Below the pieces are notes generated by a model. It saw nothing but the letters and a program-made list of their open reading frames with translations, ran no database searches and had not been told where the DNA came from. From Minisyncoccota bacterium (GTDB taxonomy: Bacteria; Patescibacteriota; Minisyncoccia; Minisyncoccales; GCA-002788555), in contig JAQUPA010000001.1 in the NCBI GenBank assembly GCA_028716825.1, positions 13,071 to 77,070 of the forward strand: a stretch of DNA of 64,000 nucleotides, written 5' to 3'. Below, in pieces: positions 20,611-43,817 of this stretch. Every line of letters begins with the position of its first letter. Positions within the stretch are counted from its first letter, which is position 1. A program made the translations under genes and the position numbers.

Positions 20611-20682
20611 GCCCTCTTGGTATAATGGATAACACGCGACGCTTCGGACGTCGAGTTGGGGGTTCGAATCCCTCAGAGGGCA
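20611..20682 (+). tRNA. tRNA-Arg (anticodon TCG), CCA not encoded
   Basis: Acceptor GCCCTCT/AGAGGGC, D-arm GGTATAATGGATAA, anticodon stem CGACG/CGTCG with loop CTTCGGA, T-arm GGGGGTTCGAATCCCTC. Confidence 0.8.
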
Positions 20683-21637: not shown

Positions 21638-21710
21638 TGCCCCGTTAGCTCAATTGGTAGAGCAGATCCCTCTTAAGGATAAGGTTGAGCGTTCGAGTCG
21701 CTCACGGGGC
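21638..21710 (+). tRNA. tRNA-Lys (anticodon CTT), CCA not encoded
   Basis: Acceptor GCCCCGT/ACGGGGC, D-arm GCTCAATTGGTAGAGC, anticodon loop CTCTTAA, T-arm GAGCGTTCGAGTCGCTC. Confidence 0.85.
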
Positions 21711-21768
21711 ATAAATTTGACGGGATAAAAGTCTTGCCGGATGCAATAAAATTAATATTATTAAAAAT

Positions 21769-23731: not shown

Positions 23732-23849
23732 AATTGAGAAGATTGACAGGAAAGAACTTTAAAAATTGAATTTACCCTATTAAATCCCGCAAAGCGGGAG
23801 CGACAAAGTCGCTATTCAATAGGGTAAGATAAGAATTTCTTTGGTGCGA

Positions 23850-26836
<2,987 letters not shown>

Positions 26837-26913: not shown

Positions 26914-26944
26914 ATTTAACAAGGTAAATTTTGAGCTCATTATC

Positions 26945-27051
26945 TTGGTGATAATACTGGGCGGGCAATACCTCTTTCCATCCCGAACAGAGAAGTTAAG
27001 TCGTCCAAGGCCGATGATATTGCTTTTGCGAGAAAGTAGGTCGTCGCCAAG
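26945..27051 (+). rRNA. rrf: 5S ribosomal RNA
   Basis: CTTGGTGATAATACTGGGCGGG...CCATCCCGAACAGAGAAGTTAAG...GTCGTCGCCAAG, flanked by the processing-stem inverted repeat GAGCTCATTATC / GATAATGAGCTC. Confidence 0.85.
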
Positions 27052-27073
27052 ATAATGAGCTCAAAGAAGAAAA

Positions 27074-39802: not shown

Positions 39803-39874
39803 CGGGGCATAGTATAATGGTTATTATGCAGGGCTGGGGGTCTTGTGACCTGGGTTCGATTCCCAGTGCCCCGA
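39803..39874 (+). tRNA. tRNA (probably Pro, anticodon GGG; anticodon arm weak)
   Basis: Acceptor CGGGGCA/TGCCCCG (7/7 paired), T-arm CTGGGTTCGATTCCCAG, D-loop AATGGTTA. The anticodon stem needs G-U pairs around the loop CTGGGGG. No CCA encoded. Confidence 0.55.
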
Positions 39875-41476: not shown

Positions 41477-42118
41477 GTGGTGAAAATGAAAAAGTTTTGG
41501 ATTTATTTTGCAATTATAATGTCCGTCCTTTTGATAGGGGGTATTATAATAACTGCTGTTCTTGGCATTCTTGATGATATCTATGCTTGGGCTTGGGTGG
41601 GCCTTGTTATGTTGCTAATAGCAGTATTATTTATAGCGGCATACGGCGAATATATTATATCAGCCATCGGCCTTGTCGATTTGTACTTCTTCTTTGCAAT
41701 GATTTTCAACTTCCAATGGAAATACTTTCTGTATTTCTTAGCAACAAGTGCTATTCTTGTTCTTGTAGCTATTATATACGTATTTCTTAAAGAAATTGGA
41801 TTGGTTGATTTTGAAGAATTCTTTAGTTCCTCTGAAGGAAAAAGTTCTTCAGGGGGTTCTTCAGGGGGTTCTTCAGGAGATTCCTTTATAGGAAGCTCAA
41901 AGAGCAGGAAAGAAAAGGAATATTGCAGAAAGTGTGGAAGCTTTAACCATAGTACCTTTGCACATGGTAGTCATGCAGAAAAGTCTCCAAGCGAATGCAG
42001 GGAATGTGGAAGTCAATACCACATAACTTTGGATCACAAAGAGTGTGGAGTTTGTGAGAGTACAGAGCATGATACTTCAGAACATATACCATTCAGCGGT
42101 AAATTAGAAGGAGATTGA
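41477..42118 (+). CDS. membrane protein with C-terminal triple Cys/His repeat (zinc-ribbon-like)
   Basis: Four to five TM helices, an SSGGSSGGSSG linker, then three repeats CRKCGSFNHSTFAH / CRECGSQYHITLDH / CGVCESTEHDTSEH. ATG 41486 is the likelier start. Confidence 0.55.
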   Translation: MVKMKKFWIYFAIIMSVLLIGGIIITAVLGILDDIYAWAWVGLVMLLIAVLFIAAYGEYIISAIGLVDLYFFFAMIFNFQWKYFLYFLATSAILVLVAIIYVFLKEIGLVDFEEFFSSSEGKSSSGGSSGGSSGDSFIGSSKSRKEKEYCRKCGSFNHSTFAHGSHAEKSPSECRECGSQYHITLDHKECGVCESTEHDTSEHIPFSGKLEGD

Positions 42119-42150
42119 GTCCCTTATGGGCCAAGAGACAATATTAAAAC

Positions 42151-42186
42151 GCGGGAAGTCTAAGGATTTCCCGCCTGTTTTATTTT
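42151..42186 (+). terminator. rho-independent terminator
   Basis: GCGGGAAGTCTAAGGATTTCCCGC hairpin followed by CTGTTTTATTTT. Confidence 0.7.
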
Positions 42187-42246
42187 CAAATATAAAAACA
42201 AGATTATTTATTCCTGAAAGATTTTCGAGATTTGATTTTTTCCGCC

Positions 42247-42275
42247 TTGTAAAGGGAAGTTTTTTATGTTATACT
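42247..42275 (+). promoter_or_regulatory. sigma70-type promoter (TTGTAA, 17 nt, TATACT with extended TG)
   Basis: TTGTAA at 42247-42252 and TATACT at 42270-42275. Confidence 0.5.
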
Positions 42276-42362
42276 GTCTTTGGTTTGAGTTAACTCTCGT
42301 GTTTCTTATTTAAAGTTATCTTTAAATTTTGTACTCCGAGGGGATCAAACGGGGTCGATTAG

Positions 42363-42414
42363 TCCTTTGAAACAGCGGTTTTTTACCGCTCCTGCTTGGC
42401 AGGGTTTCAAAGGA
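42363..42414 (+). promoter_or_regulatory. three-way-junction RNA structure in the 5' UTR of the RRM protein gene
   Basis: P1 TCCTTTGAAAC/GTTTCAAAGGA (11 bp) encloses P2 AGCGG-TTTTTT-ACCGCT and P3 CCTGC-TTG-GCAGG. Confidence 0.5.
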
Positions 42415-42456
42415 TAAATGCCTGTTATTAAACAGGATAAAATTTAGAGAAAACGT

Positions 42457-42723
42457 ATGGAAGAAGCAAAAAACAAGCTCTACGTTGGAAACTTGGCATA
42501 TGAAATCAACGATGAAAAGCTGAAAGAAATTTTTTCAGCTGCCGGTGAAGTAACAGAAGCCGTTGTTATCATGGACAAGATTTCCGGACGTTCAAAGGGT
42601 TTTGGCTTTGTTACAATGAAAGATGACGCTGCAGCTGAAAAAGCTATTGAGCAGCTAAACGAAACAGACCTCGAAGGAAGGAAAATCATTGTTAACGTTG
42701 CAAGACCAATGCGCGAAAGATAA
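42457..42723 (+). CDS. RRM-domain RNA-binding protein
   Basis: RNP-2 LYVGNL and RNP-1 KGFGFVTM. Confidence 0.85.
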   Translation: MEEAKNKLYVGNLAYEINDEKLKEIFSAAGEVTEAVVIMDKISGRSKGFGFVTMKDDAAAEKAIEQLNETDLEGRKIIVNVARPMRER

Positions 42724-42744
42724 AATTGATTATCTTAGCAGAAA

Positions 42745-42772
42745 AAGCGGATCTTATTGATCCGCTTTTTTA
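42745..42772 (+). terminator. rho-independent terminator
   Basis: AAGCGGATCTTATTGATCCGCTT hairpin followed by TTTTT. Confidence 0.8.
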
Positions 42773-43025
42773 TTGTTTTTCTATAACTTGGTTGAAGGAG
42801 AAGAGTAATGGGAGGAAGAGGGTCGGCTTTAAAAGACCGTTTTCCCCGAAAGTGTTCCTGTAAACGGAATTACACTTCCGAGAGCTCTCTATTTTATCAA
42901 TTGAGTTTATTCTTGAATAAAATCGGAATTTATTGTATACATCAGAATTAACCTATTTAGCACATAGTGCCAAAAGAGGTTTAAAATATATAAAAAAAGG
43001 AGGAAGTTGAGTTAAAGGAGGGGAG

Positions 43026-43817
43026 GTGATTTGCTTGTCATTTAACGATAACCACAAACTGGAGCTTGAAAACGATGAGGACTTGGTAAAGCTGGCTCAG
43101 CAAGGAAACGAAGAAGCCCAGCGAGTCTTGTTAGAGCGTTATAAATACATAGCAAGCACGAAAGCAAGTTTGTATTTTCTTCCCGGAGGAGATCAAGACG
43201 ATTTATTCCAGGAAGGGATGATTGGCCTTTTTAAGGCAATTCGCGGTTATCAAGAGGGGCGCGATTCTTCTTTTAAGAGCTTTGCTTTTTTGTGCGTTTC
43301 TCGAAGTATAGTCACAGCACTAATACTAGCAAATCGCCGGAAGCACAAAGCTCTTGATGGTTATTCCTCTTTAGATAAATACGTTAGCCCAGATGGGGAA
43401 GAAGGCAATAACCATTTGCCGGCCAGCTACTTGGAAGATCCAGAAGAGATTTTTATCAACAATATAGAAAGAGAGGAGATGGAGGTCTTCTTACGAGAGA
43501 AGTTGTCACCCTTTGAATTTGCGGTAGTTCAGCTATTTATTCAAGGATTTTCTTACAGGGAAATAGCCAAAAAGCTGGGCATATCCGAAAAGCAGGTTGA
43601 CAATGCTCTCTGTAGAGCGAGGGTTAAGACCAAGCGGTATGCAGAATACATGGACACAAAGGATAAAAAAAAGGAGGTGTTAAAGGTGCCAATTAGCGGA
43701 TACACCATCTTTATGAAAGAGCAGTACAGAAAAGGACTAACAATGGATCAAGCTCTTGAGGCCTATAGAGAGCTATCACCGGAGAAGAAGGAAGTGTTGT
43801 CAAACGAAGCAAAGTAG
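43026..43817 (+). CDS. sigma-70 family sigma factor, SigH (Spo0H)-like, with a ~60 aa C-terminal extension
   Basis: Region 2 DLFQEGMIGLFKAIRGY...SFKSFAFLCVSRSIVTAL and region 4 SYREIAKKLGISEKQVDNALCRARVK, co-linear with Bacillus SigH. GTG 43026 or TTG 43035 start after AGGAGGGGAGGTG. Confidence 0.75.
   Translation: MICLSFNDNHKLELENDEDLVKLAQQGNEEAQRVLLERYKYIASTKASLYFLPGGDQDDLFQEGMIGLFKAIRGYQEGRDSSFKSFAFLCVSRSIVTALILANRRKHKALDGYSSLDKYVSPDGEEGNNHLPASYLEDPEEIFINNIEREEMEVFLREKLSPFEFAVVQLFIQGFSYREIAKKLGISEKQVDNALCRARVKTKRYAEYMDTKDKKKEVLKVPISGYTIFMKEQYRKGLTMDQALEAYRELSPEKKEVLSNEAK

Follow-up and report, generated by a model that had tools for sequence, protein, structure and literature searches.

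RRM proteins have newly come to be recognised in bacteria as general post-transcriptional regulators and as cold-adaptation factors, and how their own levels are controlled is at issue. In CPR bacteria, whose genomes are tiny, hardly any regulatory RNAs are known; in their rbp leaders they offer a defined RNA-protein pair, an 88-aa RRM protein and an RNA element of about 75 nt. The rbp gene considered here lies in a 64-kb stretch of DNA from a CPR/Patescibacteria genome, which we call the window. The most eye-catching structure of its leader is a three-way junction, which a preliminary description had taken for riboswitch or protein-binding aptamer architecture. We asked whether the junction, or some other part of the leader, is the likely site of control.

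The rbp transcription unit

The rbp gene (42457-42723, + strand) encodes an 88-aa protein with a single RRM (PF00076), whose RNP motifs read LYVGNL and KGFGFVTM; the element thus belongs, as first described, to the 5' UTR of such a gene. The protein is 100% identical to the NCBI entry 'RNA-binding protein [Candidatus Pacebacteria bacterium]', and the rbp host is a 'Candidatus Pacebacteria' MAG. Alignment to orthologs begins at residue 1 of the N-terminus, MEEAKNKLYVGNL. The following signals surround the gene.

42247-42275, + strand: promoter-like site, with -35 TTGTAA, a 17-nt spacer and an extended -10 TG-n-TATACT
42446-42449, + strand: weak Shine-Dalgarno-like AGAG (sequence reading)
42457-42459, + strand: start codon ATG (sequence reading)
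42741-42771, + strand: intrinsic-terminator-like hairpin and T run, closing the rbp transcript

Because of the position of the -10 box, we place the 5' end of the rbp mRNA near 42282/42283. This start site, obtained by consensus match, would give a leader of about 175 nt, and the homologs have similar -35 and -10 boxes at an equal distance from the conserved core described below. The element had been given as 42247-42456, in a leader of about 180 nt; position 42247 belongs to the -35 box and not to the RNA. On the upstream side, a terminator-like hairpin (42151-42174) follows the end of an ORF at 42118. With its own promoter-like site and terminator-like hairpins on both sides, the rbp gene looks monocistronic.

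In the upstream ORF (41477-42118, + strand, 213 aa) the N-terminal half is hydrophobic and resembles predicted transmembrane segments, 12-nt units in roughly tandem array (TCTTCAGGGGGT) encode a Gly/Ser repeat near 41848-41880, and the C-terminus is rich in Cys and His (CRKCGS..H..H, CRECGS..H..H, CGVCES..H..H). A sigma-70-family gene (43026-43817, + strand) comes after rbp, and the same gene order is found in L163 (646-1428; PF04542/PF08281). Elsewhere the window carries an unlinked rRNA operon, with a 23S gene (23845-26835) and a 5S gene (26944-27052) but no 16S gene in all 64 kb, and three tRNA genes (20611-20682, 21639-21711 and 39803-39874).

A stable three-way junction in the leader

The junction and the hairpin that follows it are composed as follows.

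42362-42415, + strand: three-way junction formed by P3, hairpin 1 and hairpin 2 (fold and sequence positions)
42363-42373, + strand: 5' strand of the closing helix P3, TCCTTTGAAAC
42374-42390, + strand: hairpin 1, AGCGG-TTTTTT-ACCGCT
42391-42403, + strand: hairpin 2, CCTGC-TTG-GCAGG
42404-42414, + strand: 3' strand of P3, GTTTCAAAGGA
42421-42436, + strand: hairpin P4, CCUGUU-AUUA-AACAGG, then AUAAAAU

All the strings originally quoted for the junction are present in 42363-42414, and the segment 42360-42420, folded alone, gives exactly this structure, which accounts for 73% of the ensemble. Its MFE is -30.5 kcal/mol, as against -12.2 +/- 2.8 kcal/mol for 200 dinucleotide shuffles, none of which was as good (z -6.59); the folding z score of the whole leader is -4.76. 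Two details differ from the preliminary description. The closing helix has the 11 bp reported, with a possible twelfth pair (G42362-U42415), and hairpin 1 has the sequence reported but forms 6 bp (AGCGGU/ACCGCU) closing a loop of 5 nt instead of six U residues. There are no unpaired nucleotides at the junction itself, and no loop nucleotides are conserved. Even with up to three mismatches allowed, the 64-kb window contains a single copy of the junction sequence, and on this ground we rejected a dispersed repeat, whether MITE, REP or mobile element.

P4 is a fourth hairpin, 3' of the junction; in the closest subclade, each of the eight leaders has a hairpin at this position with A-rich sequence after it. 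A 9-codon uORF (42418-42447: ATG CCT GTT ATT AAA CAG GAT AAA ATT TAG) overlaps this region. It probably does not encode a functional peptide, because a 2-nt difference in L163 alters its frame and length and because P3 engages its SD-like AAGGA (42410-42414) as part of the 3' strand.

The junction has a narrow distribution

Orthologous loci were taken from three sources: 80 from one-genome-per-species contigs, a further 80 from metagenomes, found with an alignment of the closest proteins, and those encoding the closest database homologs. In L161 and L162, whose proteins are 95% identical to that of the window, the junction is present with three substitutions. Two of these fall in stems, a C to U change in hairpin 1 and an A to G change in hairpin 2, and both pairs are kept as G-U; the third falls in a loop. 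The L163 sequence (89% identity) is cut inside the junction, of which it contains the 3' strand of P3 as well as hairpin 2. At 82-85% identity (L164-L172) the junction is absent, and one or two simple, unrelated hairpins stand at the same position. It is likewise absent from every other homolog examined, including those of other CPR lineages.

The space in question, from a conserved GGUCGA to the start codon, is referred to below as the slot. It measures 20-98 nt across 29 distinct leaders, that of the window being the longest, and it holds up to two stem-loops of unrelated sequence; about nine of the 29 leaders lack stable structure there. Within the closest subclade, strong structure is common to all the slot stems (z -2 to -6), which could reflect a function of the slot. 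P3 is homologous to the plain long hairpins of L166 (CUUUGUUAAG/CUUAACAAAG, with a 9-nt loop) and L169 (CUCUGUUAAA.../...UUUAACAGAG, with 16 apical nt), and compensatory changes separate the window from these two (CUUUG/CAAAG to CUCUG/CAGAG, and AAAC/GUUU to UUAAG/CUUAA). The apical part is 30 nt long in the window, where it comprises both hairpins, versus 9 or 16 nt in L166 and L169. Since P3 is homologous to simple hairpins, the two inner hairpins represent an apical insertion. Sequence comparison thus indicates that the junction is a two-hairpin insertion at the tip of a variable stem, confined to roughly the species or genus level.

These findings bear on the proposal that the junction itself is a ligand- or protein-binding, riboswitch-like aptamer controlling rbp. 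Such a role would suit its very stable and well-defined fold and its place 3' of the conserved core and 5' of the ribosome-binding site (RBS), and would agree with the retention of pairing at both L161 stem substitutions and with the compensatory change of P3 within the subclade. Two pairing-preserving transitions would, however, arise by chance about once in four times, and L161, with its three substitutions in the junction, one of which makes a hairpin loop differ, has none in its 80-nt core match (238-317). An aptamer conserved across orthologs was not found, the junction being missing at 82-85% protein identity and in all other lineages; nor did we find conserved unpaired pocket nucleotides, unpaired nucleotides at the junction, conserved loops, an Rfam match, or an expression platform in the form of a terminator or an anti-RBS partner. 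We therefore regard the aptamer proposal as very improbable; the leader was rightly singled out, but the junction is the wrong part of it.

A conserved core lies upstream of the junction

The same leader contains, directly upstream of the junction, a segment with a quite different distribution. Its elements in the window are these.

42282-42359, + strand: conserved core, about 75-80 nt
42283-42288, + strand: H1 5' strand, GUUUGA, at or no more than 1-2 nt from the predicted mRNA 5' end (core MFE)
42294-42299, + strand: P1 5' strand, CUCUCG (CUCG in relatives), partner of CGAGGG at 42337-42342 (core MFE)
42308-42327, + strand: Pvar, a variable hairpin, AUUUAAAG-UUAU-CUUUAAAU (fold)
42333-42337, + strand: P2 5' strand, ACUCC, overlapping the P1 3' strand CGAGGG (42337-42342) in the conserved CCCCGAG block
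42345-42350, + strand: H1 3' strand, UCAAAC, partner of 42283-42288 (core MFE and the A5 alignment)
42351-42359, + strand: GGGGUCGAU, composed of the P2 3' strand (GGGGU) and the conserved tail (nearly invariant columns)

From the inferred transcription start, the consensus reads (G)GUUUG-AAAGUA-CUCG-UGU up to the variable hairpin, and (A)CCCC-GAG-GAAAnn-CAAAC-GGGGUCGA(U/A) after it. GGGGUCGA, which follows H1 and carries GGGG, is a nearly invariant tail, and the GGGGUCGAU block of the window is the most conserved part of the leader. At the position of Pvar, the homologs have hairpins of differing sequence and length, or none (L081, L128). About 29 distinct leaders keep the core. They come from MAGs that bear the labels Pacebacteria, Berkelbacteria, Saccharibacteria or 'Patescibacteria group', and their RRM proteins are just 60-85% identical to that of the window. 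The long blocks GUACUCGUGU, CCCCGAG and GGGGUCGA persist across lineages in which the proteins are 60-70% identical. The window itself has H1, P1, CCCCGAG and GGGGUCGA in this order 5' of its RRM gene.

A covariance model (R1) was built from a seed of 17 cores, that of the window included. R1 has a single match in the 64-kb window (42280-42359, 60.9 bits, E 2e-13), and a second model, R2, scores the window core at 60.0 bits; both matches arise by construction, since the window is in the seed. Eight matches outside the seed are independent (L001, L003, L005, L007, L082, L161, L173 and L184), and all the R1 matches in 172 loci lie immediately 5' of RRM genes. The models are escaped by the divergent leaders L083, L085, L104 and L127. 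R2, which was built to capture L085, L104, L127 and L033, recovered none of these and gave a weak partial match to L083 alone. In viral contigs, the pattern CCCGAG-N6-12-CGGGGTCGA was matched 120 times by chance, for the most part where the G+C content is high, and no match scored as the motif. In L001 (Berkelbacteria), the 3' part of the core is internally duplicated (2940-2975, GGGGTCCCGCTAAACGGGATCGGGGTCGAT), and this leader therefore has two GGGGTC blocks.

The preliminary description had made its case depend on a leader conserved upstream of orthologous rbp genes. With a core of about 80 nt conserved there in several CPR lineages, that point holds, and the comparison of sequences supports the view that the leader is under selection.

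Predicted fold of the core

Three pairs of complementary blocks can be recognised in the core: H1 (GUUUG/CAAAC), P1 (CUCG/CGAG) and P2 ((A)CCCC/GGGG(U)). In alignment-free folding, the MFE structure of 18 of the 26 distinct cores is an extended hairpin in which an internal loop separates H1 from P1 and the variable hairpin forms the top, and six cores favour P2; the MFE of the isolated window core is -20.1 kcal/mol. H1 is kept in several sequence variants: GGUUA/UAACC (L005), CGGUUG/CGACCG (L173), UGAAAG/CUUUCA (L104), GAAG/UUUC (L085) and GCUAGUUUG/CAAACGUUAGC (L033). P1 of the window is extended to 6 bp (CUCUCG/CGAGGG), a UC insertion unique to this lineage being matched by an AA to GG change opposite. 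G-U pairs point to selection on the + strand RNA and not on a DNA site.

Covariation across rbp leaders, which had been proposed as a check, gave a divided answer. Computed column by column on a structure-blind MAFFT alignment, it did not reach significance, because of register shifts and a misaligned 5' block; we therefore relied on partner-swap and shuffle tests and on single-sequence folds. When cognate 5' and 3' segments were compared with swapped ones, the summed energies were -130.8 versus -106.8 +/- 7.8 (p 0.002), and cognate partners remained better when only the 13 non-canonical variants were used (p 0.006). Against shuffled loops, 4 of 2000 were as good as the cognate partners. In an alignment fitted to the model (A5), 94.3% of cells are paired, as compared with at most 55.7% when the partners are slid (H1 92.5%, P1 97% and P2 94%, P2 having been left out of the covariance model), and four pairs show double changes. 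Independent compensatory events are few because the core helices are short and highly conserved. Altogether the support for the core fold is moderate: thermodynamic folds and the partner-swap tests are positive, and column-wise covariation is weak.

A geometric argument suggests how P2 may relate to the other helices. C62 would be placed at the upper end of the stem and its partner G77 comes directly after the lower end, without any linker, and a full P2 together with H1 and P1 would need a sharp bend of the internal loop. H1 with P2, or P1 with P2, would each be an ordinary H-type pseudoknot. P2 would accordingly be either an alternative to the extended hairpin or a pseudoknot with it. A sarcin-ricin-like AGUA/GAA internal loop was also considered and was dropped because AGUA is not conserved in the subclade of the window, which has UUAA.

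Comparison with known classes of regulatory RNA

The Rfam search that had been suggested for the junction gave no match to a riboswitch or thermometer family. At gathering score, a scan of the whole window shows no Rfam 15 family in 42247-42456 and Chlorobi-RRM (RF01697) nowhere, and neither RF01697 nor any other relevant family matches the 20 homologous loci. A search of 42100-42800 at E<=10 gave 22 matches, none of them relevant and RF01697 not among them. Over 42247-42456, the best sub-threshold scores were 18.5 bits for Avashort_thermometer (gathering 88) and 18.4 bits for RUF1 (gathering 70); higher-scoring sub-threshold matches sit over the terminator downstream of rbp. No terminator-like site was found on the + strand between 42175 and 42740, and an attenuator was rejected on this account.

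Predicted accessibility of the RBS was also considered. In the window, the mean P(unpaired) from -15 to +3 goes from 0.29 at 37 C to 0.27 at 15 C; among the homologs, it ranges from 0.24 to 0.82 and barely shifts between these temperatures. Consistent masking of the RBS across homologs is not predicted, the partners being different, and no simple translational mechanism emerges from these predictions.

This bears on the proposal that the leader is a cspA-like cold-sensing mRNA, in which alternative folds would alter translation or stability with temperature. Two competing folds (H1 and P1 versus P2) are indeed predicted across homologs, and in the full-leader MFE of the window positions 42320-42334, with the 3' strand of Pvar, pair with the RBS region, a structure favoured over the modular fold by about 10 kcal/mol. 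The RRM proteins of Bacteroides are cold-induced, and the authors of the work on them ask about a thermosensor in the rbp 5' UTRs (PMC13370968). Against a cold sensor, the RBS pairing of the Pvar strand is found in the window alone and is not conserved, accessibility is spread over 0.24-0.82 and predicted to be nearly the same at 37 and 15 C, and the thermoregulator families of Rfam do not rise above noise. No conserved temperature-labile pairing of the SD or AUG, of the ROSE, fourU or cspA type, is predicted. A cold sensor is in our judgement improbable.

A small-molecule riboswitch formed by the core, for its part, would be consistent with a compact conserved fold, a possible pseudoknot and invariant unpaired nucleotides. 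The core, however, precedes RRM genes only and never metabolic or transport genes, it has neither a terminator nor consistent sequestration of the RBS, and it matches no Rfam family; we give this explanation next to no weight. As expected of an autoregulatory leader, a conserved and structured element does stand directly upstream of the regulator's own gene.

Other leaders of RRM genes

Several further types of leader were seen among the loci. Leaders of family A' (L091, L097, L102, L116, L135 and L037), which precede more distant RRM genes, have UCUC(G)/(C)GAGA and GGUCG in common with the core, and their 5' end pairs with a segment just 3' of GGUCG. This 5' helix differs at every locus (GUAGG/CCUAC, AAGUAGA/UCUACUU, UCGG/CCGA and others). 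Family B (L009-L012, L015-L018, L028, L030 and L038) has the form AGTTAGCCTAGA-[covarying hairpin]-CTTCTTAGGAAATATTCTCAAAATCAAAAGGAGGTG. Together with family D (L088, L092 and L094, and L090, L093, L095 and L098), it makes up two or three conserved types of RRM leader in other CPR groups (Roizmanbacteria/Microgenomates-labelled and others). Family C, about 150 nt ahead of the RRM start, is very strongly conserved and comes from numerous metagenome contigs of soil and peat, with the consensus GATAGCTTGTC..CAAGGCATGG.GAATCTTCAGGTGAAC...GTTCAGTGATGATTT.A.ACCCGG..GTCGGGAACAGTCTGG and a GTGAAC...GTTCAG hairpin; its loci are L099, L101, L105, L107, L109, L113-L125, L129-L131, L133, L138-L141, L145, L147, L148, L150, L151, L153, L154, L156, L157, L159 and L160. 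At gathering score, neither the family C representatives L131 and L139 nor the A', B and D leaders among the loci scanned match Rfam. A 5'-terminal helix is the common theme of families A', B, C and D.

The slot is also expanded independently in other lineages, at L184 (276-347) and L089 (1406-1500), to 72-95 nt with quite different multi-stem structures, and is a hotspot for structured insertions.

A model for the rbp leader

The reading we favour, with a probability of roughly 60%, is that the core provides cis control of the rbp mRNA and that the junction is a stem specific to this lineage in the slot. The leader would accordingly consist of a conserved 5' core and, separating it from the RBS, a hypervariable slot. 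The core would form an extended irregular hairpin, in which H1 engages the very start of the mRNA and is followed by an internal loop, by P1 and by a variable apical hairpin, and the apical CCCC, complementary to the GGGGUCGA tail, would allow P2 to compete with this hairpin or to form a pseudoknot. By analogy with the RRM-1 genes of Bacteroides and with Chlorobi-RRM, the control is most likely post-transcriptional, through autoregulation, stabilisation of the 5' end, or both. The RRM protein may bind conserved single-stranded blocks such as GGGGUCGA in a negative feedback, shifting the balance between H1/P1 and P2, and the 5'-terminal H1 may shield the mRNA against 5'-end-dependent decay. The junction would be the first slot stem of this lineage (P3) with two small hairpins inserted at its tip, a tolerated, structure-preserving expansion that may serve as a spacer or stabiliser, and no sensor. 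The autoregulation or thermosensing suggested in the preliminary description would, by this hypothesis, belong to the core rather than to the junction, if either applies. The case carries a caution, in that the most stable and eye-catching structure of a leader can be a fast-evolving expansion, with the functional signal in a weaker-looking neighbour.

Could the leader be a mere mRNA stabiliser, with H1 and the downstream stems blocking 5'-end-dependent RNases and no specific regulator? It is established that 5' stem-loops stabilise the mRNAs of ompA, ermC and aprE, with no conserved sequence required. In family A, H1 begins 0-4 nt from the inferred 5' end, the related types of rbp leader also have a 5'-terminal helix in spite of very different sequences, and the slot stems are stable and have no conserved sequence. 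For stabilisation, however, a helix alone would suffice, yet GUACUCGUGU, CCCCGAG and GGGGUCGA are conserved in sequence and CCCC/GGGG provides a competing pairing. The conserved blocks and the competing pairing suggest specific recognition or switching, and we regard a stabiliser of this simple kind as unlikely.

A bolder form of the favoured reading is that the core of about 75 nt (H1, P1, CCCC/GGGG and GGGGUCGA) represents a new class of cis-regulatory RNA, Patescibacteria/CPR-wide, which switches and is read by the RRM protein. An extended hairpin, with the 5' end sequestered in it, would alternate with a CCCC/GGGG-paired, pseudoknotted state, and the protein would in this way set its own level. 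We put this forward tentatively, as possible rather than probable. If true, it would be the first class of regulatory RNA described for the reduced-genome CPR, with a built-in hypervariable slot for expansion, and families A', B, C and D, related yet different RRM leaders of other phyla, would make structured autoregulatory leaders general for bacterial RRM genes.

Relation to known leaders

Surveys of ncRNAs in 26 and 50 bacterial genomes mention no RRM-associated motif, and our search for literature linking Patescibacteria, RRM and UTRs found none. The closest parallels are leaders of other genes for nucleic-acid-binding proteins. The E. coli cspA 5' UTR is a cold-box, thermosensing mRNA that can adopt alternative folds, responds to feedback from the protein it encodes and is controlled through mRNA stability. 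The rbp leader resembles it in preceding the gene of a small, abundant nucleic-acid-binding protein and in its alternative folds; it differs in that the protein is an RRM and not a CSD protein, in having no match to the Rfam cspA family and in the lack of any predicted dependence on temperature. With the stabilising leaders of ompA, ermC and aprE it shares a helix on the first nucleotides of the transcript (here H1), but the core of the window has, in addition, a competing pairing and extensive unpaired blocks whose sequence is conserved.

The Chlorobi-RRM motif, found in the leader of RRM-protein genes in one bacterial group, is presumably autoregulatory. It is, like the core, a structured cis-regulatory candidate in RRM-gene leaders of one bacterial group; unlike the core, it belongs to another phylum and has another fold, and the leader of the window has no detectable similarity to it. 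It is tabulated as a cis-regulatory candidate (RF01697; Weinberg et al. 2010, PMC2864571). [quoted passage not shown] As far as that description goes, they are like the rbp gene of the window in encoding small single-RRM proteins behind long leaders (122-155 versus about 175 nt), and unlike it in belonging to another phylum and showing no apparent kinship of sequence or structure. These two sources provide precedents for the earlier statement that rbp and csp genes often have structured, feedback-regulated leaders (PMC13370968, PMC2864571). Since the core matches neither Chlorobi-RRM, nor the cspA family, nor any other Rfam family, it is a credible candidate for a new motif that works like other leaders of RNA-binding-protein genes.
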